Assembly (NCBI GenBank): GCA_964565945.1
Contig: CAZMGY010000019.1
Span: 101,460 to 133,459, forward strand
Source of the DNA: an uncultured bacterium
GTDB taxonomy: Bacteria > GCA-001730085
Direction of reading: 5' to 3'
DNA length: 32,000 nt
Below the pieces are notes generated by a model. The model did not search any database and was not told where the DNA came from. It saw nothing but the letters and a program-made list of their open reading frames with translations. Below are positions 1-32,000 of this stretch, one piece after another (positions within the stretch are counted from its first letter, which is position 1; every line of letters begins with the position of its first letter). Made by a program: the position numbers and the translations under genes.

Positions 1-1
1 T

Positions 2-1977: not shown

Positions 1978-2105
1978 GGGTGATAATCGCCGTTATTGTG
2001 CAATAACTTTGGTGAATTTTCGAGTACATTAATCTTACTCAGCTAATGGTCTGCCGTTCCTAACTGTTGGGGTTTGGTTATGATGTTGAACACTGCTTGA
2101 AATCG

Positions 2106-3152: not shown

Positions 3153-3213
3153 AATTAAAAAATTTCCCTTCAAAGCATTACCATTGTATAGCAAAAACGA
3201 GATGCGGCTATGT

Positions 3214-4374
3214 TTATTTCGTCTTTTGAAGCTCGTTTTGGATTAGGTGAATAAGTCTGTGGCCCAGGTGTTTAGGGGTGAATTGTGAGTTGAACAGTTG
3301 ATGGGCTTTATGGGCAAGAGAGCTACGGAGTTCTTTGTTGTGATAAAGTTGTTTAATGGCTTTTGCTAGGGCCACGGGATCGTCCGGAGGTGTTAGAAGA
3401 GCTGTTTCATTATCGGTGAGAATTTCTCGTGATGCGGTGGTGTCCATGGTAATAATCGGTTTTTTCATGGCCATTAAGCTGTAGACTTTGATAGGAATTA
3501 CCATTTGAGCTTTTTCGGTGGTTCCAAAAATACCTAAACCCACGTCGGATTTCTCGTATAGGGCTGGCAATTCTTGCAGCGGGAGATAAGGTTTAAAGCT
3601 AATGTTGCGTGTTTGCAGTTGTTGAGTTAATTGAACTATGGATTCAAAAGTTTGGCCTTTGCCGACAAGGGTTAGACGAATTTTGGGAAAATCTTCCAAG
3701 TGTTTAGCGGCCTGAATGATGGTTTTGATGCCATGAAGGGGGACGTAGGTCCCAACAAAAAGAATCTCAAAAAAATCTGTTTCTTCAGATACTGCGGTTT
3801 TGGCTGGTTTAAAAATATCGGGATCTTCACCCACATATAAAGACTTTATTTTTTCGGGATCAATCTGAAAGGTATTGGCAATATGATGGGCATGAGCTTG
3901 GGTGTCGGACAAAACAAGCCTTGCTTGCTGAAGTGATACACGATCGACCCAATGAAGAAGTTTAGCCTCGCAACTGTTGGGATTAATAGCTTGACGATCA
4001 ATCACAGCTGTTTCATGATTCATCACAAAACTATCAAAAATAATTGGTTTGTTGAAGAGCTTGCCAATCAGGGAAGCGACTAAGACATCAAACTGATAGG
4101 GGTGTCCAATCATGATGGCGTCAATGCGGTAGACGATCAGACGATGAATAAGCTGGATACTCAGGAAGGCATACGTCCAAAATATTTTGCAGATGAACAT
4201 CAGCCAGGCCAGCCCAAGCTGCCATTTGGCAGGCTTAGGGGAAGAGAATTTTAATTTGACATCAGGCTTTAAACAAGGTTTGACGAAATCCACGCCTTGC
4301 TGTTCGAGGCCTTTGAGAATCACGCGATTGCGTATGTATTGTTGACGGCAATGCCCAAAATAGCAAAGTCTCAT
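3214..4374 (-). CDS. Glycosyltransferase, GT-B fold, group 1 (GT4-like)
   Basis: The C-terminal half has a typical glycosyl-transferase group 1 pattern (FVGTYVPLHGI..., LPALYEKSDVGLGIFG, MAMKKPIITMDT). The N-terminal half carries a hydrophobic insertion. Its ATG overlaps the upstream methyltransferase stop (ATGA at 4371-4374). Confidence 0.8.
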   Translation of the reverse strand: MRLCYFGHCRQQYIRNRVILKGLEQQGVDFVKPCLKPDVKLKFSSPKPAKWQLGLAWLMFICKIFWTYAFLSIQLIHRLIVYRIDAIMIGHPYQFDVLVASLIGKLFNKPIIFDSFVMNHETAVIDRQAINPNSCEAKLLHWVDRVSLQQARLVLSDTQAHAHHIANTFQIDPEKIKSLYVGEDPDIFKPAKTAVSEETDFFEILFVGTYVPLHGIKTIIQAAKHLEDFPKIRLTLVGKGQTFESIVQLTQQLQTRNISFKPYLPLQELPALYEKSDVGLGIFGTTEKAQMVIPIKVYSLMAMKKPIITMDTTASREILTDNETALLTPPDDPVALAKAIKQLYHNKELRSSLAHKAHQLFNSQFTPKHLGHRLIHLIQNELQKTK

Positions 4375-5042
4375 AGGGGATTATCCTGACAAGGTCGCGC
4401 CGATACAAGATATTGAAAGGCTAAAAAATTTTTAAGAAAAGGCCAGGCAAAATAAGGAGCCCAGCGATTGATTGGACGAGGTTCTTCGACAAGGCGATAG
4501 GTCGTTGAAAGAGATTCGATCGAAAAATTGGCCTGGCTAAAGAGCTCTTCGACGTTGCGTTTGGTGAAAAAACGTAAATGCGTGCGATCATGAACCCCGC
4601 GATCGCGGTAAGGCCAATAGCCTTTGACAAAAATAGTCCACAGCGAGTCCCAGTGGCGAATATTGGGCAAAGATGCGATCATTTGACCGGAAGGTTTGAG
4701 GTGTGTGCGAAGTGTTTGGAGTAGAGACCATGGATTGATCAAGTGCTCCAAAACATCACCACAAATGATGGTGTCGAAGCGTGTTGTTTTGAGCTCTTGT
4801 GTAAGGTTGAGACGATTAAGATCTCCCTGAATGACACGATCAAGTTTCTTGTGAGCCTCTTGCGCCATGTCGGGACAATATTCGATGCCCGTGACCTGAC
4901 AATCAAAATGCTTTTTAAGAGAAGCTCCGAGTGTTCCGACACTACAGCCGACATCGAGAATGGTTTGAGGATTACCTGTGATAAGAGCCACAAGATCGGA
5001 GCGTTCTCCAGTGTAGGCTGTGTTGAATGGAGTGGTTTTCAT
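4371..5042 (-). CDS. Class I SAM-dependent methyltransferase
   Basis: SAM-binding motif I ILDVGCSVGTLG, an acidic residue after beta-2 (GIEY), and motif FDTIICGDVLEHL. It has ATGA overlaps with both neighbours. Confidence 0.8.
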   Translation of the reverse strand: MKTTPFNTAYTGERSDLVALITGNPQTILDVGCSVGTLGASLKKHFDCQVTGIEYCPDMAQEAHKKLDRVIQGDLNRLNLTQELKTTRFDTIICGDVLEHLINPWSLLQTLRTHLKPSGQMIASLPNIRHWDSLWTIFVKGYWPYRDRGVHDRTHLRFFTKRNVEELFSQANFSIESLSTTYRLVEEPRPINRWAPYFAWPFLKNFLAFQYLVSARPCQDNPL

Positions 5043-6508
5043 GCTTTCTTTTCTTCCTTTAAGCGATGTAGAATTTGTAACCTTATTTTATGAACGAGTG
5101 GGTGTTCCCACCACAAGATGATTAGGCCATAGGTGAAAAGACTAAGGCCAATGCCTGCTAGCGTAAGCGGTCCTTTCGAGAAGATGCTGTGGACACTGAC
5201 GTATAAGAAGTTCAAAATGATGTTGGCTAGAACAATTGGCCCAAGGGAGCGAATTTGCTTGGGAGCCGAAGGAAACTCTTTGTTGAGAACTTTTAGAACT
5301 ACAGCAAAATCAAGCCATTGAATAAAGGTGATGGCCCAGGCTGCGCCTTTCATATCGTAATGGCGAACCGCAATCGGTATTATGACAAAACCAATGCAGA
5401 GGGAAATAATATTAGCGTAAAACAGGGTTTTGGGAGAACCGATGCTATTAAGCAATGGAGAGTAGGTAGCTAAAAAACAGCGAAAGCAGGCGTACAAACA
5501 AAAGATTTTAAGGATGGGCACCATGCCATACCAGTTGGAGCTAAACAGCGTGCCAATAATGGGTTGGCTAAACTGAGCTAAAGTGATTAAAGCTGGCAAA
5601 AGAACAATCAATAGGCTTTTGAAAATTTGAGTGGTCACAGCTAGCATGCGTGGTCGGTCATGTTGCAGTTCACAATAAATGGGAAAAGCAACGCCATTAA
5701 CGGCATGAATCACCATCATGACAGGTATGGAGGCGAAAGTGAATGCCCAGATATAAAAACCTAGTGCTTGAGCGCTAAGGTATTTGGCGACCACAAAATT
5801 GTCGTATTGCATTTTGCTAAATACAAGAAGGCCTTGACCTAAAATGTATTTCCCATAGGTAATGATGGCGATTAAGATGCGTTTGTGAACTTTTTTAGCT
5901 GAAAAGCGGATTTTGGCAAACATAAAGACGCCCAAACTGTTCACTAAAATAGCTGTGAAGTGGGCGATCAGAAGCATCCAAAAGGAAGAATAAAGCAAAC
6001 ACAAACCTAGTGCCAAAAGAGCATAAGTGGCAATGCTAATCAGTTCGGCAATGGCAATTTGTTTGAATCTATGGTTTCGCTCAAGATAAGCCACTGATAT
6101 TGTTTGGAGGGGCCATATCCAGAGGATAGAGCTAAAAATGAGTAAAATGTTTCCTAAGGGGGGCTTATTAAAAAAACTTTCTAGAGGGTAAGCCAGTAAG
6201 AGTAAAAGAAAAAAGAGGACCGCGTTTAAAGCATAGCTGAAGCACAGAGCTGTGCTTATGATGCGATCTTCGGGGTAAGACTTGTTGTAGACCACAAAAG
6301 TTGCGATTCCAAATTGCCCCAAAAGAGCCATAAAGTCGATAATACTAATACTAAGAGCAATGAGTCCAAAGTCTTCGGGCAAAAAAATACGAGCCAAAAC
6401 GATTTTGGCGATTGTCCGAATAAGGTAGCCACTTATATTTTTGGATAAAAGCCAAAAGCTGTTCGATAAAAGGTTTTCTTTGATGTTCATACTCCAGCAT
6501 TGTATCAC
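5039..6508 (-). CDS. Polysaccharide biosynthesis protein / Wzx-like MOP-family flippase (multi-pass membrane)
   Basis: About 12-14 hydrophobic helices. The N-terminal region NSFWLLSKNISGYLIRTIAKIVLARIFLPEDFGL is typical of Polysacc_synt flippases. The start is GTG 6508 or ATG 6490. Confidence 0.75.
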   Translation of the reverse strand: MIQCWSMNIKENLLSNSFWLLSKNISGYLIRTIAKIVLARIFLPEDFGLIALSISIIDFMALLGQFGIATFVVYNKSYPEDRIISTALCFSYALNAVLFFLLLLLAYPLESFFNKPPLGNILLIFSSILWIWPLQTISVAYLERNHRFKQIAIAELISIATYALLALGLCLLYSSFWMLLIAHFTAILVNSLGVFMFAKIRFSAKKVHKRILIAIITYGKYILGQGLLVFSKMQYDNFVVAKYLSAQALGFYIWAFTFASIPVMMVIHAVNGVAFPIYCELQHDRPRMLAVTTQIFKSLLIVLLPALITLAQFSQPIIGTLFSSNWYGMVPILKIFCLYACFRCFLATYSPLLNSIGSPKTLFYANIISLCIGFVIIPIAVRHYDMKGAAWAITFIQWLDFAVVLKVLNKEFPSAPKQIRSLGPIVLANIILNFLYVSVHSIFSKGPLTLAGIGLSLFTYGLIILWWEHPLVHKIRLQILHRLKEEKKA

Positions 6509-6921: not shown

Positions 6922-7752
6922 GTGCGAATGGTGTCTATGATGAAAATTTTGCTTGTACATGTTTGTATTTCGCTTATGATACTGGCGGTCATTTGGACTG
7001 TTCAAGTGCTTATTTATCCCCAGTTCCAGCAGGTACCCCTTTCTCACTTGTTGGCTTATAGCCAATCGCATGCACGATTGATCAGTTGGATTGTAATGTC
7101 CTTGATGGTGTTTGAAGTGATAACTCTTGGATCTCTTTGGGGTTGTGGTGAATCCCGAAGTCTTTGGTTAAGTGTCGCGACAGTGGCTTTGTTGGCTATG
7201 TGGATTCAAACCTTCATGCAGATGGTTCCTCTGCATCAGCAACTTCACGAATATGGACAACCTTCGTTGGATCTGGTAAAGCAGCTAATCAGCTTAAATT
7301 GGTTTTGGACTATTGCGTGGACGATCAAGTCGCTGGCTCTTGTTGCGTTAGCCCTTTTGTTAAGATGGCCTTATCTGAAGCCATCTTTTTGGAAAGATAT
7401 GTCTTGGAGAAGCCCCTTGAATAAGCCCAATGGTATTAGCTCCTGGGTCGAGACAGTGGATTCCCAGAGGGTTTCACCTATTGATTTAAGATCTTTATCG
7501 TCGTCGATTTGGCCACGCATTGAGGCTCACTGGCAGAGGGAAGGCCGTTCCTTTCGACTTCTTCAAGAACAAGGCCGTCAGCGAATCTATGTGTTATGGA
7601 CTAAAGCTTGGGTTTTTCCTGATATCATTTGTTTCAAGTTTATTGACAATCAAATTCATGTGCGCTCGCAAGCGATGTTGGGTTATTCTGACTTCGGTTA
7701 CAACCGTAAAATTTGGGATGCGTTGCAAGATCATTTGGTGGAAACACTGTGA
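6922..7752 (+). CDS. Membrane protein: N-terminal 4-TM domain (tentatively DUF1772-like) fused to a C-terminal DUF1499-like domain
   Basis: Four hydrophobic helices in the first ~150 aa, with QMVPLHQQL between TM3 and TM4. The C-terminus IHVRSQAMLGYSDFGYNRKIW matches the RS.s..GySDlGvNr signature I associate with DUF1499. The start is ambiguous (GTG 6922, ATG 6928/6937/6940). Confidence 0.5.
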   Translation: MRMVSMMKILLVHVCISLMILAVIWTVQVLIYPQFQQVPLSHLLAYSQSHARLISWIVMSLMVFEVITLGSLWGCGESRSLWLSVATVALLAMWIQTFMQMVPLHQQLHEYGQPSLDLVKQLISLNWFWTIAWTIKSLALVALALLLRWPYLKPSFWKDMSWRSPLNKPNGISSWVETVDSQRVSPIDLRSLSSSIWPRIEAHWQREGRSFRLLQEQGRQRIYVLWTKAWVFPDIICFKFIDNQIHVRSQAMLGYSDFGYNRKIWDALQDHLVETL

Positions 7753-7914
7753 ATTTTCCACTTGTCAGCAGCCTTGATTAAGTGCATGCGTACGGACACT
7801 TTGCTATAATTCTCTCAACGAGTCTTAACAAGCGAAATACCCCAAAGGGGGCGAGCAATCACTCAAGAGGATTGATAATTTACTTGAGCTTAGTTAATCA
7901 CTTTCAACAGCAAC

Positions 7915-8370
7915 TTACTGCTTCTTTTTAAAATAACTTTTTTGGAATTGATTCACCAGATCTCGAATGATTTGGGTATGTTTCGGATCTGTGGTTTGTT
8001 TGGCTTTCATAGCATGCACAAGAATGTGATGTAGCCAGGTCAGTTCCTGCTGATATTTAACAAAATCGTTTTTCTTATTCGGAGAAACGGGTTTAATTCG
8101 TTGACACAAAAAATACTTGGCAACAATGTGCTGGATTTTTTCGGCATGTTTCTCTTTGTTAGATACCCAGCGAACTAACTGATTGGGATTGGCTTGGGCA
8201 TTAATGGCCTTCATCGACTTTTCGATGGTGTGAGTGTGTTCGAGTATAAGATTGATCCGAGCTTGATCGTCGTAAATACCACAAGGAATTTCGCAGTGTG
8301 ACCAGGCGAAAGGTTGAGAGGCAAAAAGACATCCAGCAGTGGTTAAGGCCAGCATAAAGTGTTTCATCAT
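7915..8370 (-). CDS. sodN: Nickel-containing superoxide dismutase (NiSOD) precursor
   Basis: The Ni-hook motif HCEIPCGIYDD (canonical HCDLPCGVYDP) follows a 24-aa leader MMKHFMLALTTAGCLFASQPFAWS. The remainder is a ~125-aa helical-bundle-length protein. SD TAGGAGA lies upstream of the tandem ATGs. Confidence 0.88.
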   Translation of the reverse strand: MMKHFMLALTTAGCLFASQPFAWSHCEIPCGIYDDQARINLILEHTHTIEKSMKAINAQANPNQLVRWVSNKEKHAEKIQHIVAKYFLCQRIKPVSPNKKNDFVKYQQELTWLHHILVHAMKAKQTTDPKHTQIIRDLVNQFQKSYFKKKQ

Positions 8371-8838
8371 TTTCTCCTATCTGTTTGGGCTAGTTCAGCA
8401 CATGCTTCATTATACGATGGGCGTTTCGTGTTTAGCAAGTTTTGATCTCCTGAGGGTTGCAAAACTTGTGAATCGAGACAGTTGTAAAATACCACCAAAG
8501 ATCACCTGTCTGGTAAAATACAACGATGCCAATCAATTCAGGCTTTGCTAATCACATTTATACTGAATTTACGCGGTGCTGATTTCTGTATTTAATTCGC
8601 CATGGCACTCTTGGGGGATTTTGCTTGGCATTCCTTTTGGAGTCTTAGTATAGTTCTGGGGGCTTTGCCTTTGCACGGGACAACACAGCTAGGTCTTGTT
8701 TACTTGCATCGGTGTGATTGGTTTGCTAGGATATGAATTCTGGCATAACATGGTTATTGCTTGTAGCGACGGGGTTTATTGGAAGGTGGGGGGAATGTGA
8801 GGCAGTTGATTTTGATCATCTTGCTATTCGCGTGGACA

Positions 8839-8847
8839 GGGGGGGGG
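8839..8847. repeat. G9 homopolymer tract
   Basis: Nine consecutive G residues read directly in the 8371-8971 gene-poor region. Confidence 0.95.
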
Positions 8848-8971
8848 AGGAGCTTTTTGACCAAGGAACTGAAACACGCTTAAAGGTTTGAATTTTGGAG
8901 TTACTTTTCTTGCGTAAGCCAGGGACTTTCATTAGAAATAGAGGCTCACTTAAAAAATAGGAGGTTTAAGT

Positions 8972-9469
8972 ATGGCGGATTCGTTCTCATTTGATATTTT
9001 TTCGGACGTGGATGATCAAGAGGTGATGAATGCTATGCATCAGGCAAACAAAGAACATTCACAGCGTTTTGACTTAAAAAACACCAATAGCAACATTGAG
9101 TTCAAAAAAGAAGATCATGCCTTGGTGGTGGCTTCGGCCGATAAATACACCCTTAACAGTGTGGTTGAGATTCTAAAAAGTAAGCTGGTGAAACGAGGGG
9201 TTTCATTGAAATCGTTGAACTATGAAAAAATAGAAGATGCTCAGTCGGGTACGGCGCGTCAGCAAATAACATTTCAACAAGGGATTCCGAGCGATAAAGC
9301 CAAAGAAATTGTGAAAGACATTAAAGCGAGCAAGTTAAAAGTGCAAGCACAGATTATGGATCAGAAAGTGCGTGTGTCAGGCAAAAAAAGGGATGATCTT
9401 CAAGAAGTTATGAATATTGTGAAGCAAAAAGACTATGACATTCATGTCGATTTTGGAAATTATAGATAA
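8972..9469 (+). CDS. yajQ: YajQ family nucleotide-binding protein (UPF0234)
   Basis: The N-terminus SFSFDIFSDVDDQEVMNAMHQANKEHSQRFDLK matches the YajQ pattern (SFDIVSEVD.QEv.NAv.QA.KEi..RfDfK). The ~165 aa length fits, and there is a strong SD TAGGAGG. Confidence 0.85.
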   Translation: MADSFSFDIFSDVDDQEVMNAMHQANKEHSQRFDLKNTNSNIEFKKEDHALVVASADKYTLNSVVEILKSKLVKRGVSLKSLNYEKIEDAQSGTARQQITFQQGIPSDKAKEIVKDIKASKLKVQAQIMDQKVRVSGKKRDDLQEVMNIVKQKDYDIHVDFGNYR

Positions 9470-21499: not shown

Positions 21500-22852
21500 T
21501 TAACTTAAAGACGTGTGAACAAGTTCACTCATCTTGATCAGCTCTGGAATAGACACGTTGTGCTTATGGAAACGTTCCATGAGCTGGGTGTCCAAGATGA
21601 TCTTTTTCTTTTGGGGAACGTAGTGAACATAGATTTTATCGAAGTTTTGGAATTCAAAACTCTGAATCAGAGTGGTAATAATGTCCAAGGACTTATCGAG
21701 AATTTTGATGTAATAGCTATCAAGCAAAGCCAGTGCTTCAGGAGATTGGTTGCGGTCAATATTTATGTTGAATTGGATGATGGAGGTTCCATCTTTTTGT
21801 TTAAGATATTGGCCTGTAACAAATTTGGTGGTGAATAACTTTTTAAGTTTTTTATCTTGGGCAAAGGTAGTGCGAATGCGGTTGGTAACTTGTCGGATGA
21901 CAAACATCGGCACAGATTCATCTTTGAACGTTTGCTGAGAATTATTCCAAGAATGAATATTCTCATGCTCTTTGTATTCTTTGGGAAAACCTTGATAAGT
22001 AAGACCCTGATCGGGGATCTTTTTGTGCAAAGCGTAGATGGTTTCCATGATTTTAGGGGTCAAATGGGTGTTAATTACAAACAGGTATTCGTTTTGATAG
22101 CCTGAAGGAACCTGAAAAGCATAGTCTTTGTAGTGTTCATCTGGTTGGTAGGTTTCTGTCACTTTGATGTAAACCAATGCTTTGAAGCGACTGAGTCTCT
22201 TGGTTTTAATATCAATGATTTCATATTTTTTTTCTGTTTTCATGCTGTGCTCCATCAGCATGGCGAAGAAGGCTGGTGAGACTTTATCGATGCTAATGTT
22301 GTCGGGGAAAAAAGATTTGATAATTTCGTTTGCAGGGGCGGAACGCATCTTTTGGAAAAAAGAGCGCACCATGTTTTCGCCCATAATAACGGGGTTGAAC
22401 TCGATATCCATTTCCATGCGCTGGATGTAATCGTCACGAGAAATTGCTCCCAACATGAACTTTTTGATGTCGTGCACATAGCGTGTGATCACCAGTTCAA
22501 CGCCAGGATTTTTGGTGTCGAATACTACTATTTTATAAAACTGAATATCGTTGGTAGCACTTAGACCAGCACGTGAAGCAGCCAAGGTAACATTATTGAT
22601 TTGTTTCATTGATTTTTCCGAAAGAAAGCGTGCCGAAAGAATAATGTCCTTAACAGGTAGGTAGACATAGAGGGTGTTACCAATGATTTTAGAGGTTAAG
22701 TCTATGTCGTATTCTTTTTTACAAACATCAATCACGCATTGAGCCAGTTCATCACGAGAATAGGTGTTTTGATTTTTTTCAAAACAACCTGTTAAGGAAA
22801 CTAAAAGCAATAAAAGTCCCGCAATACACCAGTGAGTCGATGTTTTTACCAT
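21500..22852 (-). CDS. Lipoprotein of unknown function
   Basis: The signal peptide has a lipobox (LLLLLVSLTG|C). 450 aa with no motif I recognise. Its ATG overlaps the FtsH-like stop by 7 nt (ATGGTAA), implying co-translation with that gene. Confidence 0.7.
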   Translation of the reverse strand: MVKTSTHWCIAGLLLLLVSLTGCFEKNQNTYSRDELAQCVIDVCKKEYDIDLTSKIIGNTLYVYLPVKDIILSARFLSEKSMKQINNVTLAASRAGLSATNDIQFYKIVVFDTKNPGVELVITRYVHDIKKFMLGAISRDDYIQRMEMDIEFNPVIMGENMVRSFFQKMRSAPANEIIKSFFPDNISIDKVSPAFFAMLMEHSMKTEKKYEIIDIKTKRLSRFKALVYIKVTETYQPDEHYKDYAFQVPSGYQNEYLFVINTHLTPKIMETIYALHKKIPDQGLTYQGFPKEYKEHENIHSWNNSQQTFKDESVPMFVIRQVTNRIRTTFAQDKKLKKLFTTKFVTGQYLKQKDGTSIIQFNINIDRNQSPEALALLDSYYIKILDKSLDIITTLIQSFEFQNFDKIYVHYVPQKKKIILDTQLMERFHKHNVSIPELIKMSELVHTSLS

Positions 22853-24510
22853 GGAGGAGTTCCTTCTTCTGTGTCTTCCTTATGAGTGGCGTATGGCTGG
22901 AATGTGGTTTTACCGTACTCCTGGAAGATGGCGTCAATTTCGTCGTATTCAAGCTCTTCTTTTTCGAGAAGTTCTTGAACAAAGCGATCAACGATAGGCC
23001 ATTCTTTATGCAACAGATCTTGGACATCCTTAAGCGCGTTGTTGATAAGCTTGTCCACTTCTTTATTGAGTCGTTTTTTGAGATCTTCTGACAGCAATTC
23101 CTTAGGAATTGCCGCGTAATCCCCAATGGTTGAAACGTTTTCCGACATACCCCAGCTCCATACCATAAGGTTTGCAAGATTTGTGGCTTGGCGGAAGTCC
23201 GAAGAAACACCGTTGGTGGTGGTGCCATATTTGATCTTTTCAGCAACATACCCACCTAGGGCGACCTTAATATCGGCCATGAATTTCTCTTTATTGTGTG
23301 CGTAGAGCTCTTCACGAGGTTGGCGATAGACAACTCCCAATGTTTGTTTCCGCGCAATAATAGAGGCTTTAAATACATCGTCTGTTGGATGGAGAATAAA
23401 GGTTGTTACCAAATGACCCGTTTCGTGATAGGCCGTCATTTCACGTTCATGCGGAGTTAAGCTCTTTTTGTGCTTGATACCGAGTTCAATTCGCTCCATG
23501 GAGCTACTGAGATCTTTATGATCGACAATTTCTTTTTTCTCGCGTAGGGCGATCAATGCTGCTTCTTTAACGATGTTTTCAATTTCCGCGGGCGATTTAT
23601 GAATAGCAATCCGAGCCAAACGCCCAATGTCAATGTTTGGATCGTGCTTAACTTTGTTAAGGTAAAATTCGAAAAGTTTATGACGACCTTCTAGTCCTGG
23701 GCGATCAATGTAGACCTTACGGTCAAAACGACCTGGACGCAAAAGGGCTTCGTCAAGAGAATCTTCTGGCGCATTGGTTGCGCCGATAATGATGATGTTC
23801 TCTTGTTTATCTCCCAAACCATCCATTTCAACCAGTAATTGATTTTGTGTGGCGTTAGTTTCTTGTCCACCTCCAAAACTTAATACTTTTCTCTTTTGAG
23901 CGATGGCATCAATTTCGTCGATAAAGACAATGCAAGAGCCATGTGCTTCGGCTTGGCGACGTGCCTGTTTGAAAAGTTTGCGCATACGTGAAGCACCAAC
24001 ACCCACAAAGACTTCAACAAATTCACTGCCAGCGATTGACATGAAGGGTATACCCGCCTCGGTCGCGATGGCTTTGGCCAAAAGTGTTTTACCACAGCCT
24101 GGAGGACCAACCATTAAAAGACCTTTAAGAATTTTTCCCCCGATCCGTTTGACCTTTTGACGATCACGGATGAGTTCCACTACTTCCCATGCTTCTTCCT
24201 TGGCTTCGTCGATACCGAGAACTTGATCAAAGTGAATATTCACTTGAGTTGCTTTAACCGATTTTTTAGAAAACTTGGAAAATCCATCTCTCAAAACGGT
24301 TAGGTAAAGGAACACAAACACTGCGGCATGAAAAATACCCTGCAAGAGCATGATTGGCATTTGAGCAAGAGTCATACGGCGGTAAAAAGGCTCCATTTTG
24401 CTCAAGCCGAAAATAGAAAGCAAGATCAAAATGATCAGCCCACTGACAACAAGAATAGAAATCCAGTGATCCATAAAAATTAACTTCATGCGCTTAAAAA
24501 AACGGGGCAT
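22846..24510 (-). CDS. ftsH: FtsH-family ATP-dependent zinc metalloprotease (AAA+ plus M41), short form with a minimal extracytoplasmic loop
   Basis: Walker A GPPGCGKTLLAKAIA, pore loop FVEVFVGVGASRMR, Walker B IVFIDEIDA, SRH ATNAPEDSLDEALLRPGRFDR, and zinc site HETGHLV. There are two N-terminal TM helices separated by only ~12 aa. ATG 24510 is preferred because of GAGGAGG 9 nt upstream; the track's TTG 24528 lies inside that SD. Confidence 0.9.
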   Translation of the reverse strand: MPRFFKRMKLIFMDHWISILVVSGLIILILLSIFGLSKMEPFYRRMTLAQMPIMLLQGIFHAAVFVFLYLTVLRDGFSKFSKKSVKATQVNIHFDQVLGIDEAKEEAWEVVELIRDRQKVKRIGGKILKGLLMVGPPGCGKTLLAKAIATEAGIPFMSIAGSEFVEVFVGVGASRMRKLFKQARRQAEAHGSCIVFIDEIDAIAQKRKVLSFGGGQETNATQNQLLVEMDGLGDKQENIIIIGATNAPEDSLDEALLRPGRFDRKVYIDRPGLEGRHKLFEFYLNKVKHDPNIDIGRLARIAIHKSPAEIENIVKEAALIALREKKEIVDHKDLSSSMERIELGIKHKKSLTPHEREMTAYHETGHLVTTFILHPTDDVFKASIIARKQTLGVVYRQPREELYAHNKEKFMADIKVALGGYVAEKIKYGTTTNGVSSDFRQATNLANLMVWSWGMSENVSTIGDYAAIPKELLSEDLKKRLNKEVDKLINNALKDVQDLLHKEWPIVDRFVQELLEKEELEYDEIDAIFQEYGKTTFQPYATHKEDTEEGTPPW

Positions 24511-24555
24511 GCGACGTATCCTCCTCAAGGTTCTACTAACTAATAGATTTAAAGC

Positions 24556-24584
24556 ATTGTATGTGACAAAATACTATTCAGCAA
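24556..24584 (-). promoter_or_regulatory. Candidate sigma70-type promoter for the ftsH-like/lipoprotein pair
   Basis: On the minus strand: TTGCTG (24584-24579), a 17-nt spacer, TACAAT (24561-24556). This sits about 45 nt upstream of ATG 24510. Confidence 0.35.
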
Positions 24585-24743
24585 GGGTAACACAACCATT
24601 TCTACTAAGTCAAATTATCCTAATGAAACCTTAGAGCTTTTACTTGGAGGCTAGGGAGAAGAATTTAGGAAAAAAAGTAACTAAATTTTATTAATTGTCT
24701 TAATAATGAAATGAGTTATATTAGGTTTAAGAAAATTCTTCTC

Positions 24744-24771
24744 TTGAGCTTTATAAAAATTTTGGTAGAAT
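24744..24771 (+). promoter_or_regulatory. Candidate sigma70-type promoter for rpe
   Basis: TTGAGC (24744-24749), a 16-nt spacer, then the extended -10 TGG-TAGAAT (24766-24771). This sits about 58 nt upstream of ATG 24829. Confidence 0.35.
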
Positions 24772-24828
24772 AGAGGGTCAATATCTCAGCCTATACGGTG
24801 TTTTGAAGCAAAGGGTCTATAAGAAGCG

Positions 24829-25488
24829 ATGGAATATAAAATTGCACCATCAATACTTTCGGCAGACTTTAGTCGTCTTGCGGATGATGTAAGTTTGCTT
24901 GAGCAGTGCCAACTCGAAATGCTACATGTGGATGTGATGGATGGGCACTTTGTTCCCAACTTAACCATTGGGCCAGTTGTTATAGATAAGCTACGTCCTC
25001 ATAGTCAGATGCTTTTCGATGTTCATCTTATGTTGCAACACCCTCAGAATTATATTCAAGCTTTTGCACGTGCGGGTACCGATAGTATTACGGTTCATGT
25101 TGAATCCGATCATAATATTCTAGAAACGATTCAGCTGATTCGTCAAAAAGGCAAGAAGGTTGGTGTGTCTTTAAACCCCGACACTTCATCGAATGTTGTG
25201 GAAGGTTTACTCGAGCATGTTGATATGGTTTTATTGATGACTGTGTTTCCAGGTTTTGGTGGACAGCTTTTCATCGAAGATGTGTTGCCTAAGGTGGAAC
25301 AAGTTCGTGAATGGGTGCATACGAAAGGACTAGAACAACAGGTTAATGTGCAAGTGGATGGGGGAATTAACAATCACACTTTGCTTCAAGCCAAAGATGC
25401 TGGAGCGAATGTGTTTGTTGTTGGGAATTATATTTTTGGTCAAGGTAAAATTGTGGAAACAATTGAGCACTTAAAAAGTCTGCTATAG
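24829..25488 (+). CDS. rpe: Ribulose-phosphate 3-epimerase
   Basis: APSILSADFSRL, LHVDVMDGHFVPN, MTVFPGFGGQ.F and VQVDGGIN motifs. Confidence 0.93.
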   Translation: MEYKIAPSILSADFSRLADDVSLLEQCQLEMLHVDVMDGHFVPNLTIGPVVIDKLRPHSQMLFDVHLMLQHPQNYIQAFARAGTDSITVHVESDHNILETIQLIRQKGKKVGVSLNPDTSSNVVEGLLEHVDMVLLMTVFPGFGGQLFIEDVLPKVEQVREWVHTKGLEQQVNVQVDGGINNHTLLQAKDAGANVFVVGNYIFGQGKIVETIEHLKSLL

Positions 25489-25507
25489 CGGCAAGGAGTC
25501 ATAACAT

Positions 25508-26932
25508 ATGTCACAGGTCAAATTTGGTACAGATGGGTGGAGGGGCATTATTTCGGAAACATTCACAATGGAGAATGTTGAGTATGTGAGTCAGGCGATT
25601 GCCGATGTGATTGCGGCTCGCAAGAATAACCCTTCTAAGACAATTGTGATTGGTTATGATACACGTTTTATGTCGGATGATTATGCTAAGCGGATTGCCG
25701 AAATTTTAGCGGCCAATGACTTTAAGGTTGTTTTGTCAAATAAAGTTGCTCCAACGCCTATTGTTTCTTATTTGGTTAAGCATCATCAGGCTGCAGGTGG
25801 AATTGTTGTAACGGCAAGTCATAATCCGTATCGTTTCAATGGGATAAAGTTTAAGGATTATTATGGAGGTCCTGCTTCACCTGAATTAACCACTGATTTC
25901 GAAGATGCCTTGGAACAATCTCCAGTGAAAAAAGTTGTACTAGATCAAGCCATCGAGCAAGGGAAGGTGGTTATTGAAGATTTCGATGATGTTTATGGGG
26001 CTTTTTTAGAGTCCTATTTGGACTTTGATAAAATTCGTCAAGGTCAATGGTCGGTTGCTGTCGATGCTATGTATGGTGCGGGGCAAACTTATTTTGAAAA
26101 ATTATTGGGGCGTAGCTACCAAGGTAAGGTAACTACGATTCATAGTGACGAAAACCCCTCTTTTGGAGGTGTCAATCCCGAGCCAATCGCTGCTAACTTG
26201 AGCGAGTTGATTCAGATGTGTCAGGGAGATTTTGATTTAGGTTTAGCTACAGATGGTGATGGCGATCGTATTGGTATCGTTGATGATACTGGGCGTTTTG
26301 TTTTTTCTCATCAACTGATTGCACTTTTTATTCTTTACCTTATGGAATCAAGATCTTGGACAGGCGCTGTGGTTAAATCAATTTCGACAACGGCTTTGGT
26401 TAATGTGATTGTCGAGGATAAAGGTCTTGATCTATTCGAAACTCCAGTTGGTTTTAAACATATTTGTAGGCTTATGCGTGACAAGGATGTGCTTGTTGGT
26501 GGCGAAGAAAGTGGGGGAATTGGGTTTAAAAACCATGTTCCCGAGCGTGATGGTTTGTTGGCGGGTTTACTTGTGCTTGAAATGATGTGTCACTATCAAA
26601 AACCTTTAAGTCAGATTATTGCCTCGATGGAAGAAACCTATGGTCGATACTATTACGAAAGAAATGATATTCGTTATGATATGTCTCTAATGGATCAAAT
26701 TTTGGGTGGTTTGAAAGATTTAACTCAAGAGAAGATTGATGGTCTTAAAGTTGTGTCTGTGTTAACAGAAGATGGGATCAAACAGGTATTGGAAGATGGA
26801 TCTTGGTTGCTTATGCGTGGATCTGGAACCGAACCAGTGTTAAGAGTGTATGCGGAGTCTAAAGATCAAGGGCGTGTGAATAGGCTTTTGAGTCTTGGAA
26901 AAGAACTTGCTTTGGGGGAGAACCAGAGCTAA
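25508..26932 (+). CDS. Alpha-D-phosphohexomutase family enzyme (phosphomannomutase/phosphoglucomutase-type)
   Basis: FGTDGWRG, active-site serine loop TASHNPYRFNGIKF, metal loop ATDGDGDRIG, sugar loop GGEESGG, and RGSGTEP. Strong SD AAGGAG. Confidence 0.88.
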   Translation: MSQVKFGTDGWRGIISETFTMENVEYVSQAIADVIAARKNNPSKTIVIGYDTRFMSDDYAKRIAEILAANDFKVVLSNKVAPTPIVSYLVKHHQAAGGIVVTASHNPYRFNGIKFKDYYGGPASPELTTDFEDALEQSPVKKVVLDQAIEQGKVVIEDFDDVYGAFLESYLDFDKIRQGQWSVAVDAMYGAGQTYFEKLLGRSYQGKVTTIHSDENPSFGGVNPEPIAANLSELIQMCQGDFDLGLATDGDGDRIGIVDDTGRFVFSHQLIALFILYLMESRSWTGAVVKSISTTALVNVIVEDKGLDLFETPVGFKHICRLMRDKDVLVGGEESGGIGFKNHVPERDGLLAGLLVLEMMCHYQKPLSQIIASMEETYGRYYYERNDIRYDMSLMDQILGGLKDLTQEKIDGLKVVSVLTEDGIKQVLEDGSWLLMRGSGTEPVLRVYAESKDQGRVNRLLSLGKELALGENQS

Positions 26933-26993
26933 GAGCTTTCGCATGAATGGGAAAATTTAAATGATTTGAATACTGATAAAAAGGGATGTACGT

Positions 26994-29900
26994 ATGCGGA
27001 TACTTCAGATGGTAAGTTTGTGTTGGGTCGCGATGTTAACGGTGGGTTTTGTCCCCGAGCGACCTATTGACCTCTATAACAAAGCCAAGGATTTGGTAAA
27101 AGAAGCTTCGATCAGTAAGGACTCAGGGAATTTATTGCAGAGTTTGGATCGTTACAATGAAGCTTTGTTTTTATTGGAGAAGGTTCGTCAAGATTATCCT
27201 ACTTGGGATATGATGATTTTGGTGGACATCGAAGCTAAAAAAAGTGAGGACTTGATCAAACAATTGCAGATTCAGGTTGAGCGAAGCAAAGTTTATAGTG
27301 TTCAGAAGGTCAAAAAAGAAACAACAGAAAAAATTCAGCTCTTTGAGCAAAAAATTGTCGAACTTGAACAGCTTGTTCAGAAAGAAAAAGCCAAAAAATA
27401 TGAACAAAAGGTTTTGTCTCGGGATTTTCGTCTTCAGTTAGAGCAAACACAGTCTCATGTAAAAAAATTGTTGAATGAAAAGTTGACCATTGAAGAGAAG
27501 TATCGAGTAGAAAACAAAAATAATGCGAGGATTAAATCGGAATATGATTTTCTTAAGAAAGAGGTCAATAAGCTAAGACGTAATTACAATGAAGTACAAA
27601 CCATTAATGTAGAAAGCTTGCGCAAAATTGCTCACCTAGAATCTATTGAGAAAAGCGTTATGTCTTTACGTCAGGAAAATATTCGCCTTTTGGAACGTTA
27701 TAACGATCTTTTGAAAAAGAAAAACCGCTTGGAAGATAATTTCGAGACTTTAGTGGTTAAAACCAAAAAGCCAGAAGTTAATAACCAGAAGTTATCGGAA
27801 CTTGTGGAAAAGACTCAAATGAATGAGCAAACCATTACTCAGTTGCGTGCTGAGGTTGAATTGCAGAAACGTAGAGTTGGCAAGACTGCGGATTTGGAAA
27901 AAAGATATCAAGAAGCTTTGTTGAACTTGGGTGAGTTGAAGAAAGTTTTGCAAAAAAACCAGCAGGTCTTGAGCCAAAAAGATCAAGAGATCGAGCAGCT
28001 TCAAGAAATTCAAAAGCAAGGTCTTGAAGACAAGGTTAAGGTTTTGATTGAAGGGAAGAAAGCGTTGAACCAAAAGTTGGAAGGCAAACAACGTTTGGAG
28101 TTAATTTTGCGTGAAAAAATCGCGAATTTGGCTAAGTTGTCCAGGCAGAGGCAAGCGACCATAAAGTCTTTGCAAGAACAAGAAACGCAAGGTGTTGATG
28201 CGGCTCAGTTGGAAGGTTTGCAACAAATAATCCGTCAACTTGAGGAAGAGCTTAAATTTAAAGGTCAGACGATTAAACAGCAAGAAATAGAGTCAAAAAA
28301 TCAGTTGAAGTCTCTAGAGGGCTACAAGGTTTCTTTGGAGGAACAGGTGCAATCCTTGGAAACAAAAAGTGCCCAAGTTGTTGAAGACAATAAGCAGTTG
28401 AAAAAGACACTCGAAAAGCTAAAGCAGTCCAAAGAACAGTTTTTTATACAAGTCAGTCGTTCCGAAAAAAAATCGCAAGGGAAGTTTAACGCGGTTGTGG
28501 TCCAAAAGGATAAGCTTAAGGAGTCGTTAGGTCAGCTTAAGCAGGAGAACGCTAAGCTTGAAGAAGACTTACAAAAATCCGCAGCGGCGTTGGATAAAGT
28601 TCAAGTGCAGAGTGATCAAATGACTAGTATAGGGGAACAGAACACTGCTCTTACAAAGGCTGTCGATCGTTTAAAGAAAGAGAAAGAGCAATTGGCGGTT
28701 AAGCTTAATCAAGTTTCATCTCTGGCGGAAGGGGATGCGGGCCAAGTGGTTGAATTGCAGAAAACGCTTGTGGCATCGAACCAAGATTTGAAAACTTATC
28801 AAAAACAATACAAAGAATTAGAACGTAAGATAGCTAACTTAGAAAATCAACAGACAAAGAGCCAGGGCGAATCTAGCCAAGAGTTGAATGAGCTACATCA
28901 GGTGGGTGATCGATTAAGGCAAAGCCTTGCTTCGAAAGACAAAGAGTTGGCCGAGATTAAGAGTCAGTTAGATCAGTTTAAAGCAAATAATGCCATTCTT
29001 AAGTCGGAGTTGACCGCTATTCTTAATCGCGACAAAAGAGAAAATAAAACTGTTTTGGAATTAAAGGCGCAACAAAAAGAAATGCAATTGGCCTTTGTGG
29101 AAAAAAATAAAGAGGTTTTGGCCTTGCGTGAAACACTTAGGGATAGTCGTGGCGAATTTTCTAAGATTCAAGATTATTTGAATCAAAAAAATAATCAGAT
29201 TAAAAGTATTCAAGAGAAATATTTGGCTTACCGTGAAAATTCTGGGGTAAAAATAACTGAGAGTAGTCAGGCTAAAAAGAAGTTGCAGGAAGAGTTCGAG
29301 GTCAATCAAAAGAAGGTATCTAGCTTGCAAAAAGAGTTGGATGAAGTGAGCAAAAAGACAGCGGTTCAGCTAACGGTCAAAGATAAAGAAATTCAGTCTC
29401 TACAGGAAAATCTTAAGGATATGATGCAGCAGCTTAAAAATCAACAAGAAGAGTTTGAGAGTATTTCAAAAAAAAAAAACGAAACCGACGAACTCTATCA
29501 AAACATCACTAAGAAGAATGCGACATTAGTTTTCGAATGGGGTCAATTAAAATCTAATGAGGAGCAATTGCTTGATCATTTGGAAGGTTTTGCTAACTTA
29601 CAAATAGATCATCAAAAGACTTTGAAAATAAATGATAATTTAAAGCAAAACCTTAGTGAGAGGTCTCAGGCGCTCAAATTTCTTGAGCGTAGTTATCAAA
29701 CCCAAAAAGCCTTTTCAAACCAAACTCAGACAGGACTCAAAGCCATCACAAAAAAGTATGCCAACTTAAGAGTGCAGAGGATTGAAGATCAAGAACAAGC
29801 ACAGTTATTAGAATCCGATTATAAGGCTACGGTAGAGACTCAGGCTTCCTTAGAGCAGCGTATTCAAACCTTAGAACAGCAAAAACGGGAGCTAGAGGAA

Positions 29901-32000
29901 CAGCGGATGGTTGCTATTGGTCAGAAAGAATCTTTGCAAACCAATTTGTCGCAACTGAATCAGCAAGTTTCTCAAGCCAACACAAAAGTTCAGGACTTAG
30001 AGCAGAAATATGCGCAGGCTCAGAAAAAGGTGCAGGCTTTGCAGAAAAATCAAGAGCGCGCGAAAGATGGCTTGGCCAAGGTTGAGCAAGCCAAAAATGC
30101 TCTGGAGCAAGAGACTAAAGTGCTGAAAGCCAAGCAAGAAAGCAGCGACGGATATCTGAAAACGGTGCAGAAGGACAAAAACTTTCTAGAGAAAGAATAT
30201 AAAGGTTTGAAAAAGAAAAATCAGGAGCTCGAACGTGATGTGCAAGCCTGGCAGAAGCAAAGCCGAGTTTTCGAAGATGAAGTGGTCAAAATGCAGTTGT
30301 CACATCGCAAGAAGATTGAGCAGTCTGAAAAGTTGTATTCCGAACAAACACAAAAATGGCAACAGCTTCAAAAGGAACAGCGTGATTTGCAAGTTCGTTT
30401 GAAGAATGCGAACAAAGAAAAGAAAGCGATTGAGCAAAGTGTTTCTGTATTGCAAAGTGGTCAGCAATCGCTGATAGATCGCCTTAATAGTTTGAAGATC
30501 GAAAAAAACAAACTCGAAGAGCGGGGGGCTAAAGACAAAGAGGAGATGGTTTTGCTTGACAAACAGCAGAAAGAGGCACGTCTACAAGTCGAGCAGGTTA
30601 GTCAAGACAAAGAGCAATTACAAAGTCTTGTTCAAAAGGTGGAAAAAGATCGAGAAGATCTTAAACAGCGTTTGCAGTCTCTTGAACAATCCAAAGTTAC
30701 TTTAGAAGCTCAAAGTGCGAGTGAGCAAGAAGAATTTAAACGAGCGAATGCAGTCCTTAAAAAAGATTTGCAGCAAAGTCATTATTTGCAAAGCCTTAAT
30801 CAAGAACAGTATCAGGGATTGAAGCAAACGTATGAAGATTTAAGGAGAAGTTATGGGAGTGAACGCCAGAAAATCTTTGAGGTAACGGAAGAGTTTTCCA
30901 AACTGCAAAAGCAAGCCGAGGCCCTTAAAGCTGAGCTAAAGACTTTGCAGGACGAACGCCGTCGCGATCGGGCCAAACTTTCGGAGTGGACAAGTAAAAG
31001 TCGAGACACGCAAGAAAGGTTGGAGCGAGAGCAAAAACTTGGTCGGGACTTGAAAGTTCAGTTCGATGATGTTAAGTATAAGTATGATCTTAATGAGCAG
31101 CGAGTGTATCATTTTAAATCGAATTACCGTCATTTGGAAAAGAATTATCGATCTCTTGAAGAACAAGCTAAAGTGTATCAAGAACAGTTGGAGCACTTGA
31201 ATAAAGATAAAGCTATTCAGCAAGATAATCAGAAACGTCTGGCTGAAAGTTTGGAACAGGTAGAGTTGGACAAAAAAGAATTAAACAACCAGTTAACGCA
31301 AGTGCTTAAGGATAAAGGATCCGTGGAAGGGCAGTTTTTGGCTACTCAGGCGAAGCAAAAATCATTGCAACAATCGCTGGATCAAACGGTTGGACAATTG
31401 AGGCAGGTGAAGGGGCAATTGCAAGATCTTGAACAAGCCAAAGATTCACAGGTTCAAAAAGTGTCCGAATATGCGGGACAGCTGGAAAAGTTTCGTCAAC
31501 GGATAGAAACGAATGAACGTCAACTTAGGGCCAAGGATCAAGAGTATCAACGTTTGCAAGAGTCGTATGAAGAGCATCTGAAAAATCGGAAAGCTATGGA
31601 GCAAACAGCTAAGGGTTTGCAGGAAGAGATGCAAAGCCAAGATGAAAAATTTGTAGCTCAAAGACAGGCATATACAAAGTTGCAACAGTTGCATGAGACT
31701 AAGCTTAAAGAACAGCGTGGTTTAGAGCAGAATTTGGAGTATTTAGAGAAAAAATTACAGTCTCAGCAACGTGAACTTACGGCCAAGGATCAAGAGTATC
31801 AACGTTTGCAAGAGTCGTATGAAGAGCATCTGAAAAATCGGAAAGCTATGGAGCAAACAGCTAAGCGTTTGCAGGAAAAGATGCAAAGCCAAGATGAAAA
31901 ATTTGTAGCTCAAAGACAGGCATATACAAAGTTGCAACAGTTGCATGAGACTAAGCTTAAAGAACAGCGTGGTTTAGAGCAGAATTTGGAGTATTTAGAG
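26994..32000 (+). CDS. 3'-truncated giant coiled-coil protein (more than 1,669 aa) with an N-terminal signal/anchor helix and a TPR-like segment
   Basis: ATG 26994 has AAGGGA 7 nt upstream and in-frame stops at 26958 and 26967. Reading codon by codon, I found no stop through base 32000. The frame was checked at 28080, 29460, 30480 and 31500. The N-terminus is MRILQMVSLCWVAMLTVGFV, then YNKAKDLV...YNEALFLLEKVRQDYP, then a continuous Q/E/K/L-rich heptad-like sequence with almost no proline. It is not in the supplied track because no stop is reached. Confidence 0.85.
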   Translation, partial: MRILQMVSLCWVAMLTVGFVPERPIDLYNKAKDLVKEASISKDSGNLLQSLDRYNEALFLLEKVRQDYPTWDMMILVDIEAKKSEDLIKQLQIQVERSKVYSVQKVKKETTEKIQLFEQKIVELEQLVQKEKAKKYEQKVLSRDFRLQLEQTQSHVKKLLNEKLTIEEKYRVENKNNARIKSEYDFLKKEVNKLRRNYNEVQTINVESLRKIAHLESIEKSVMSLRQENIRLLERYNDLLKKKNRLEDNFETLVVKTKKPEVNNQKLSELVEKTQMNEQTITQLRAEVELQKRRVGKTADLEKRYQEALLNLGELKKVLQKNQQVLSQKDQEIEQLQEIQKQGLEDKVKVLIEGKKALNQKLEGKQRLELILREKIANLAKLSRQRQATIKSLQEQETQGVDAAQLEGLQQIIRQLEEELKFKGQTIKQQEIESKNQLKSLEGYKVSLEEQVQSLETKSAQVVEDNKQLKKTLEKLKQSKEQFFIQVSRSEKKSQGKFNAVVVQKDKLKESLGQLKQENAKLEEDLQKSAAALDKVQVQSDQMTSIGEQNTALTKAVDRLKKEKEQLAVKLNQVSSLAEGDAGQVVELQKTLVASNQDLKTYQKQYKELERKIANLENQQTKSQGESSQELNELHQVGDRLRQSLASKDKELAEIKSQLDQFKANNAILKSELTAILNRDKRENKTVLELKAQQKEMQLAFVEKNKEVLALRETLRDSRGEFSKIQDYLNQKNNQIKSIQEKYLAYRENSGVKITESSQAKKKLQEEFEVNQKKVSSLQKELDEVSKKTAVQLTVKDKEIQSLQENLKDMMQQLKNQQEEFESISKKKNETDELYQNITKKNATLVFEWGQLKSNEEQLLDHLEGFANLQIDHQKTLKINDNLKQNLSERSQALKFLERSYQTQKAFSNQTQTGLKAITKKYANLRVQRIEDQEQAQLLESDYKATVETQASLEQRIQTLEQQKRELEEQRMVAIGQKESLQTNLSQLNQQVSQANTKVQDLEQKYAQAQKKVQALQKNQERAKDGLAKVEQAKNALEQETKVLKAKQESSDGYLKTVQKDKNFLEKEYKGLKKKNQELERDVQAWQKQSRVFEDEVVKMQLSHRKKIEQSEKLYSEQTQKWQQLQKEQRDLQVRLKNANKEKKAIEQSVSVLQSGQQSLIDRLNSLKIEKNKLEERGAKDKEEMVLLDKQQKEARLQVEQVSQDKEQLQSLVQKVEKDREDLKQRLQSLEQSKVTLEAQSASEQEEFKRANAVLKKDLQQSHYLQSLNQEQYQGLKQTYEDLRRSYGSERQKIFEVTEEFSKLQKQAEALKAELKTLQDERRRDRAKLSEWTSKSRDTQERLEREQKLGRDLKVQFDDVKYKYDLNEQRVYHFKSNYRHLEKNYRSLEEQAKVYQEQLEHLNKDKAIQQDNQKRLAESLEQVELDKKELNNQLTQVLKDKGSVEGQFLATQAKQKSLQQSLDQTVGQLRQVKGQLQDLEQAKDSQVQKVSEYAGQLEKFRQRIETNERQLRAKDQEYQRLQESYEEHLKNRKAMEQTAKGLQEEMQSQDEKFVAQRQAYTKLQQLHETKLKEQRGLEQNLEYLEKKLQSQQRELTAKDQEYQRLQESYEEHLKNRKAMEQTAKRLQEKMQSQDEKFVAQRQAYTKLQQLHETKLKEQRGLEQNLEYLE
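29468..29479 (+). repeat. A12 homopolymer inside the giant ORF
   Basis: Twelve consecutive A residues (tcAAAAAAAAAAAAc), encoding S-K-K-K-N in frame. Confidence 0.95.
31529..32000 (+). repeat. Tandem 252-bp (84-codon) in-frame repeat, at least 2 copies, continuing to the window edge
   Basis: Copy 1 (31529-31748) and copy 2 (31781-32000) are 220 nt each and differ at only 2 positions: G31614/C31866 (Gly to Arg) and G31626/A31878 (Glu to Lys). The 32-nt linkers are diverged. The track's two minus-strand ORFs (31446..31694 and 31755..31946) share an identical 55-aa N-terminus for the same reason. Confidence 0.93.

Follow-up and report, generated by a model that had tools for sequence, protein, structure and literature searches.

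Long coiled coils set distances in cells. Envelope spacers such as Lpp, OmpM/SlpA and Omp-alpha measure ~8–50 nm, fibres of trimeric autotransporters such as BadA reach up to ~240 nm, and the cytoplasmic rod-formers include Scy with ~1,326 amino acids (aa) and Mycoplasma HMW2 with ~1,818 aa. Bacteria are thus already known to have giant coiled-coil proteins without relatives. A tripartite layout has been described for SlpA/OmpM (PMC9388160), and Omp-alpha forms a rod of ~45–50 nm that spans the periplasm (PMC5082667, PMC9388160). In the present study we analysed a 32,000-nucleotide stretch of a contig from an uncultured bacterium (CAZMGY010000019.1, positions 101,460 to 133,459; the whole stretch is referred to as the window), in which a single open frame on the plus strand, 26994..32000, runs to the last base and encodes a giant coiled-coil protein. 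What is new in this protein is that a signal-peptide-like leader is joined to a conserved module not described before, together with an exceptionally long rod of canonical heptads and an exact 12-heptad cassette.

In OmpM, SlpA and Omp-alpha a signal peptide precedes a small anchoring domain at the N-terminus, which is followed by a coiled-coil spacer of lineage-variable length, and the window protein likewise has a central coiled-coil stalk after its signal-peptide-like leader. The Omp-alpha rod is about five times shorter than the visible rod of the window protein. No SLH domain was found in the window protein (Pfam, E <= 0.1), whose N-terminal module has a different, all-helical fold; it would resemble OmpM/SlpA/Omp-alpha in the way it works but, having no SLH domain, is not a member of that family. 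SlpA is a trimer, and any C-terminal anchor of the window protein would lie past the visible part.

The frame is free of stops for 1,669 codons from an ATG at 26994 through the end of the window, while the remaining five frames contain 55–154 stops each across the same interval. A Shine-Dalgarno-like AAGGGA (26981..26986, +), read from the sequence, is separated by a 7-nt spacer from the ATG, and two in-frame stops lie upstream, TGA at 26967–26969 and TAA at 26958–26960. The open frame and its start signals are thus as a preliminary description of this DNA had claimed. Since the frame is open to the last base, that description was also correct in stating that the gene is cut by the window and that the true protein is larger. 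The giant frame is missing from the list of open reading frames (ORFs) solely because it runs past the window edge. For this region the list holds, as had been reported, exactly seven minus-strand ORFs of at least 60 aa, all rich in L and F, which are antisense shadows mirroring the Q/E/K/L codons of the plus strand. The visible product has a mass of 196 kDa and a pI of 9.1 and is composed of 14.0% Q, 13.5% K, 12.6% L and 12.3% E, with only four prolines (residues 21, 24, 69 and 260) and one cysteine in 1,669 residues; the net charge of the visible rod is slightly positive (+33, pI 9.1). Six Logan contigs, each assembled from the short reads of a different run, are 99.98–100% identical to the window, with zero mismatches inside the gene up to 31558 (codon 1521); runs that contain the locus include SRR12008129, SRR23257892 and SRR19987513. 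A frameshift or stop on resequencing is thus excluded for >90% of the visible ORF, and the in-frame interruption against which the preliminary description had cautioned was found in none of the six up to that codon. The G+C content at third codon positions is 0.41 compared with 0.33–0.47 in neighbouring genes, and synonymous codon choice is also within the range of the neighbours, so that the gene looks native. We conclude that the giant ORF is a real, native bacterial gene.

Most of the protein is a heptad rod. Its unique part, residues 96–1507 (27279..31515, +), is non-repetitive and free of proline after residue 260. The Fourier power of core residues at a period of 3.5 was 3.5, compared with a mean of 0.17 and a maximum of 1.27 in 500 shuffles, and was 0.12 at the hendecad period of 3.67 and 0.01 at a period of 51. 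Enrichment at positions a and d was 0.43 versus 0.25 ± 0.014 in shuffles. Leu makes up 43% of position d and 27% of position a, where Val/Ile account for another 21% and some Lys and Tyr occur; positions e and g are Q, E or K. These results establish ~1,570 residues as canonical heptad coiled coil and bear out the earlier description of more than 1,500 nearly proline-free, Q/E/K/L-rich, heptad-like residues, the power at period 3.5 being far above that of any shuffle. Core positions of this kind are commoner in parallel coils of two strands and hint faintly at that oligomeric state.

At 0.1485 nm per residue, residues 96–1669 would measure 234 nm as one straight coiled coil. The arithmetic behind the rod of >200 nm proposed in the preliminary description is therefore correct, but its continuity is unproven and the rod may fold back on itself: past residue 96 a Viterbi track changes register 21 times, its longest uninterrupted stretch being the 400 residues 1270–1669, and the structural model has breaks. 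A single-sequence AlphaFold2 model of residues 1–600 is nearly all helix, at low confidence (predicted local distance difference test (pLDDT) 63, predicted template modelling score 0.26), with short non-helical breaks at 135–142, 256–260, 399–402, 493–497 and 578–581; a Foldseek search with this low-confidence model returned nothing significant.

The rod appears to be an orphan in the databases searched. A protein-level comparison found no internal repeats in residues 1–1496. There were no matches to the rod in Pfam (0 families at E <= 0.1), PDB sequences, PHROGs or PADLOC, and hence no full-length match to a characterised family in these four collections. An exhaustive phmmer search of residues 1–1200 against 1.84 billion representative proteins (E <= 1e-3) found no relative of the rod; the protein's own cluster, including Logan fragments, was never recovered by the searches, and relatives of >50% identity could be missed. 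Word-indexed protein searches with the full protein, residues 1–140 and the module profile returned nothing, a result of little weight as they also missed the known relatives. Genome-collection scans with the protein and with an exact 40-mer from the repeat described below were negative, as were a viral scan and a plasmid tblastn search, and metagenome scans returned only the 1.9-kb contig of one module relative, P0007. Phage or defence readings were considered and rejected, there being no PHROGs or PADLOC hits.

The second main feature is a three-helix module at residues 22–95 (27057..27278, +), a TPR/MIT-like hairpin followed by a loop and a third helix. AlphaFold2, given an alignment of four sequences, places helices at 24–43 and 47–67, a loop at 68–73 (DYPTWD) and a third helix that starts at 74 and continues into the rod, with a pLDDT of 86–94 over residues 21–100. 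The earlier term 'TPR-like helix pair' agrees with a sequence-profile match to single TPR motifs (profile positions 10–40) but falls short in that there are three helices, the third becoming the rod; the profile matches MIT domains weakly. Foldseek matched the modelled module to MIT domains over ~70 residues, with target template modelling scores of 0.81–0.88, root-mean-square deviations of 1.2–1.8 Å, E values of only ~1e-2 and ~15% identity; the match to Vps4-like MIT domains had a score of 0.86, a deviation of 1.2 Å and an E value of 8e-3. Peptides or helices are the usual ligands of TPR and MIT folds. An asymmetric three-helix bundle is common to the module and to the MIT domains of Vps4, MITD1 and NRBF2; however, these MIT domains are cytosolic ESCRT-III binders with no counterpart of the DYPxWxMMILVD motif. 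The window protein had no Pfam hit to MIT (PF04212), for which the relative P0007 scored 25.7 bits against a 30-bit cut-off. Likewise there was no Pfam TPR hit, and a single TPR-like motif was found where TPR proteins have tandem 34-residue repeats, usually at least three. The likeness to MIT and TPR is structural analogy and not family membership.

Conservation within the module is centred on residues 67–78, DYPTWDMMILVD (27192..27227, +), which take in the loop and the first turns of helix 3 and in which P, W, M, L and V are invariant in the alignments. Four-protein alignments share the pattern PIDxY...YxEAxxLL...RxDYPxWxMMILVD, and in all four proteins the ~75-aa module directly follows the signal peptide or signal-peptide-like segment; its P, Y, A, L, P, W, M, L and V do not vary among the four. 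The module exists and is conserved, it is modelled with high confidence as a fold, and we propose the DYPxW-MMILVD module as a new family. It is a candidate new docking domain, previously undescribed and with no entry in Pfam or NCBIfam.

Three relatives only were obtained from the phmmer search, P0006, P0007 and P0008, all aligned to the N-terminal module with E values of 4e-5 to 4e-4; pairwise BLASTP with module relatives gave 2e-13 (P0008) and 3e-13. In all three the module begins 3–5 residues past a classical signal-peptide cleavage motif (SLA|SQEP, AVQA|KEGSP and ALS|EEYP, the bar marking the cleavage site). What follows the module differs. P0006 continues with a charged helical linker and then a part rich in Y, S, N and G that ends ...LEARNDITF, where alternating hydrophobic residues and a terminal Phe give the pattern of an outer-membrane beta-signal; module, charged helical linker and barrel-like C-terminus match the tripartite layout of SlpA/OmpM. 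The gene after P0006 encodes a signal-peptide-bearing multihaem cytochrome. P0007 has a TPR domain after the module. P0008, an uncharacterised metagenomic protein of 449 aa, consists of signal peptide, module, ~270 aa of coiled coil and a C-terminal domain like GspB of the type II secretion system. It is the only protein found with the part order of the window protein, its module being 30% identical and followed by a heptad-like coil; the coil of ~270 aa compares with >1,570 aa in the window protein, and no homology was detectable within the coils. GspB/OutB is described as linking the secretin to the inner membrane and peptidoglycan (PMC9239104), and has an N-terminal transmembrane anchor in the place of the window protein's module. 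Together these sequences point to a recurring plan of signal peptide, module, helical stalk of variable length and C-terminal functional domain, within which the window protein is by far the longest-stalked example.

The contig carrying P0006, L011, has two further genes of note. Upstream (1–6117) lies a gene for a cytoplasmic multidomain protein of >2,038 aa, in which metallo-beta-lactamase-like, cyclic-nucleotide-binding-like and coiled-coil regions were recognised by eye. The downstream cytochrome gene (7899–9182) encodes a Cys/His-rich product, and the arrangement with P0006 is porin-cytochrome-like.

The sole hydrophobic segment of the visible protein is at its N-terminus, residues 1–20, MRILQMVSLCWVAMLTVGFV (26994..27053, +), followed by P21 and P24; in a 19-residue Kyte-Doolittle window the profile peaks at 1.88, only at residues 1–21. 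The segment has a signal-peptide-like layout, with an n-region MR, a 13-residue h-region ILQMVSLCWVAML and a c-region TVG with small residues at -3 and -1. No lipobox was found in it, and a lipoprotein reading of Cys10 was rejected, the n/h region before this residue also being too short. Charge is distributed with R2 before the hydrophobic core and the acidic-leaning flank PERPID after it, which by the positive-inside rule gives an N-in, C-out orientation. Since the module of the three relatives follows classical signal peptides, the segment is more likely a signal peptide of the Sec type, or a signal anchor, than an anchor that faces the cytoplasm. Of the term 'membrane-anchored' used in the preliminary description, the single N-terminal hydrophobic segment stands; anchoring in the membrane does not follow from it, given the n/h/c layout and the position of the module 3–5 residues after cleavable signal peptides in the relatives. 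Export and topology of the giant protein are accordingly predictions from these features.

The visible part of the gene closes with a tandem repeat that the preliminary description had omitted and that explains the incompleteness of the gene. Copy 1 (31516..31767, +) has 252 bp, which is 84 aa or exactly 12 heptads and corresponds to ~12.5 nm of coiled coil; copy 2 (31768..32000, +) is cut by the window's end and differs from copy 1 at 4 bases. Tandem Repeats Finder reported a period of 252, 1.9 copies and 98% matches, and the repeat was confirmed base by base and at the protein level. It falls inside the 400-residue uninterrupted register. All four differences between the copies, at 31521, 31528, 31614 and 31626, are nonsynonymous (Q/E, R/T, G/R and E/K), which is suggestive of diversification, the number being too small for a test.

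The proposed extension of the contig to the 3' end could not be achieved, as every Logan contig found stops inside the gene. The retrievable contigs carrying the neighbouring genes end at codons 101, 351, 737, 830, 879, 1519 and 1521. Contig L004 ends at 31558. The two copies no longer differ past 31528, so that 31558 is exactly where the last 31-mer found in copy 1 alone comes to its end. Contig L002 ends at 31551, and so does the 107,622-bp contig SRR12008129_3841, which lies behind L012, by coordinate mapping that assumes colinearity. Three independent assemblies with k = 31 thus break at the repeat start, at two sites 7 bases apart that match two variant sites, and the 252-bp repeat is real in independent read sets. 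A break at 31551, that is 31521 + 30, implies that those read sets contain a further copy with copy 1's base at 31528 and a different base at 31521; this hints at more than two copies or at strain heterogeneity. The source contig, too, most probably ends where the window does, 449 bases to the right. As a consequence of these breaks, total length, copy number and C-terminus are beyond the reach of short-read contigs.

We favour, at roughly even chances, the view that the giant protein is a Sec-exported, very long alpha-helical coiled-coil fibre, tether or spacer of the envelope; an envelope tether was among the candidate roles suggested earlier. The N-terminal segment would direct export and be cleaved approximately after Gly18, or it would stay as a signal anchor, most of the protein then lying beyond the cytoplasm. 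The module would serve as a docking or capping domain whose third helix nucleates the rod, and the >1,570 heptad residues would form a parallel, probably two-stranded coiled coil with stutters and short hinges. In the distal, near-identical 84-residue units an in-frame change of copy number would keep the register and alter the length in steps of ~12.5 nm, if copy number does vary. The C-terminus past the repeat presumably bears a second attachment or functional domain.

Several observations weigh against an envelope fibre. The neighbours of the gene are housekeeping genes, with none for envelope, secretion or adhesion functions among them, and the best structural analogues of the module, the MIT domains, are cytosolic. 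The homology of the module is based on three sequences with library E values of 4e-5 to 4e-4. The barrel of P0006, deduced from sequence features, had no Pfam hit even at E <= 10, and the GspB-like match of P0008 (PF16537, E 4e-6) scored 26.8 bits, below the 28.4-bit cut-off. The cleavage site with Gly at -1 and Thr at -3 is rule-based, and an uncleaved anchor in either orientation is possible. A rod of >230 nm exceeds the width of a normal periplasm several-fold, so that it would have to follow the envelope lengthwise, be folded or divided into segments, or extend out of the cell.

Other readings of the gene were weighed against the same evidence. That every assembly ends within the gene, and that the last 485 bases of the window are a tandem repeat, a typical trouble spot, could be taken to mean that there is no gene at all and that the frame arose by chance, from an assembly chimera or from a collapsed repeat. 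Such an artefact is scarcely credible in view of 1,669 stop-free codons against 55–154 stops in the other frames, a heptad phase coherent along the whole length, a conserved N-terminal module and a sequence identical in six independent assemblies; doubt is confined to the copy number and the region past the repeat. A chromosome-organising ATPase of the SMC/MukB/Rad50 type, or a relative of one, is suggested by matches to the NCBIfam models SMC_prok_B, SMC_prok_A and ASRP (E 4e-26 to 4e-11). However, the TIGR02168 match covers arm positions ~250–494 of 1181 only and scores 91 bits versus a cut-off of 567 bits, there is no Walker A motif ([AG]xxxxGK[ST]) anywhere in the visible protein, its N-terminus is a hydrophobic segment and three-helix module instead of an ATPase head, and neither Pfam (SMC_N, hinge) nor the PDB sequences gave a hit. 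For the visible 1,669 residues an SMC-type protein is effectively refuted, and the absence of an enzymatic or SMC-type head noted in the preliminary description holds.

A cytoplasmic membrane-anchored scaffold like EzrA, Scy/FilP, crescentin or HMW2 would be oriented N-out/C-in, with the rod lining the membrane or forming filaments. A lone hydrophobic helix at the N-terminus, ahead of a huge heptad rod, would be in keeping with this, as would the cytosolic fold analogues of the module and the housekeeping neighbours, and the charge of +33 and pI of 9.1 would suit contact with membrane or nucleic acid. Crescentin, FilP, Scy, Ccrp and HMW2 are also long low-complexity rod-formers of a similar size order; with Scy and HMW2 of the lengths given above, and BadA fibres of ~240 nm, the earlier statement that the window protein is far beyond known bacterial coiled coils was too strong. 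These cytoskeletal proteins are cytoplasmic and have no signal sequence, whereas the window protein has a segment that by rule is signal-peptide-like. Scy and FilP follow a non-heptad, hendecad-like periodicity of 51 residues, whereas the period in the window protein is strictly 3.5 and neither 3.67 nor 51. Pfam returned no EzrA and no crescentin-rod (Rod_CreS) hit in the window protein, and no similarity to cytoskeletal coiled-coil proteins was found. R2 and the acidic flank favour N-in/C-out over the orientation of a scaffold, and three of three module relatives carry cleavable-type signal peptides with extracytoplasmic partner domains. We regard a cytoplasmic scaffold as possible, though unlikely. 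Still more doubtful is a fully secreted or surface fibre, an adhesin or a protein for interaction with host or prey that mimics eukaryotic coiled-coil tethers and uses its repeats for antigenic or length variation. The signal-peptide-like N-terminus, the eukaryote-like Q/E/K/L composition, an orphan body with no homologues in 1.84e9 proteins, and repeat copies that differ by nonsynonymous changes only (4/4), which is common in surface proteins, would all suit such a fibre. YadA/BadA trimeric autotransporters and archaeal tetrabrachion are Sec-exported coiled-coil fibres of tens to hundreds of nanometres with repetitive stalks, but the stalks in this group are rich in N/T/S/A or built of undecads, whereas the window protein has Q/E/K/L heptads. 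No Pfam family of YadA head, neck or stalk and no LPXTG motif, as in M-like surface fibrils, was found in residues 1–1669, and the visible part has no adhesin, autotransporter or secretion-system signal. There are no secretion-system or virulence genes nearby, and the full histidine biosynthesis encoded would be atypical of an obligate intracellular bacterium. Furthermore, the gene is 100% identical across the runs examined, with no variation in its unique part. Comparison with the giant Omnitrophota proteins was rejected, as the preprint has multi-transmembrane, multi-enzyme architectures and leaves coiled coils unmentioned.

If the envelope fibre is correct, an exported rod several times longer than the known envelope spacers and built partly of 12-heptad cassettes would be a natural length-tunable ruler or fibre, and would suggest that this bacterium, so far seen in metagenomes alone, has cells of unusual architecture. 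A bolder proposal, for which we see only a slim chance, is that the DYPxW-MMILVD module defines a new class of periplasmic connectors in which it takes the role of SLH, the window protein being the extreme member, a ruler or tether of >230 nm adjustable in steps of 12 heptads (~12.5 nm). An unusual envelope would then be expected, for example one with a much enlarged periplasm, with a sheath or stalk, or with tethers between cells. Regardless of function, a small conserved module is common to exported proteins with quite different C-terminal parts, and the case shows how such genes are systematically truncated in short-read assemblies and then dropped from ORF listings.

The giant gene begins 61 bp downstream of rpe and phosphomannomutase/phosphoglucomutase genes (24829..26932, +; identified by Pfam). 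No terminator-like site was found in 24400–27400, and rpe, the phosphomannomutase gene and the giant gene are possibly one transcript. Its neighbours in the window are a his operon, a GDP-mannose pathway gene, ruvX, an M16 peptidase gene, recO, and ftsH with a lipoprotein gene; the 6.8 kb upstream of the window contain housekeeping genes only (queG, fba, nadA and an aminotransferase gene). No RNA genes were found in the window. AlaRS, Rpe and phosphomannomutase fall into 90%-identity clusters with one member each, composed only of sequences from the NCBI contig of a metagenome-assembled genome and from Logan assemblies, which means that the collection holds no closely related sequenced genome.

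Some other genes in the window deserve mention. On the minus strand, 22846–24528 encodes a short FtsH homologue of 554–560 aa, with two transmembrane helices (~23–41 and ~54–72) only ~12 residues apart and almost no periplasmic domain. The start of the adjacent lipoprotein gene (21500–22852, -) overlaps the ftsH stop by 7 nt, and the two are probably co-transcribed; the 450-aa product, for which Pfam and NCBIfam gave no match, carries a textbook lipobox (MVKTSTHWCIAGLLLLLVSLTG|C). The gene sodN, for a nickel superoxide dismutase, is located at 7915–8370 (-) with no gene for a SodX-type maturation peptidase adjacent to it, and the 600 bp beside it (8371–8971) contain no ORF of >70 aa and give no Rfam hit. 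At the left end of the window, 59–880 (+) encodes the C-terminal part of a 576-aa protein (L012, 13495–15225) that belongs to no Pfam family. Finally, the DUF1499 protein encoded at 6922–7752 (+) has four predicted transmembrane helices in an N-terminal extension, and relative to the longest ORF its start is placed 2 or 18 codons further downstream in Logan gene calls.

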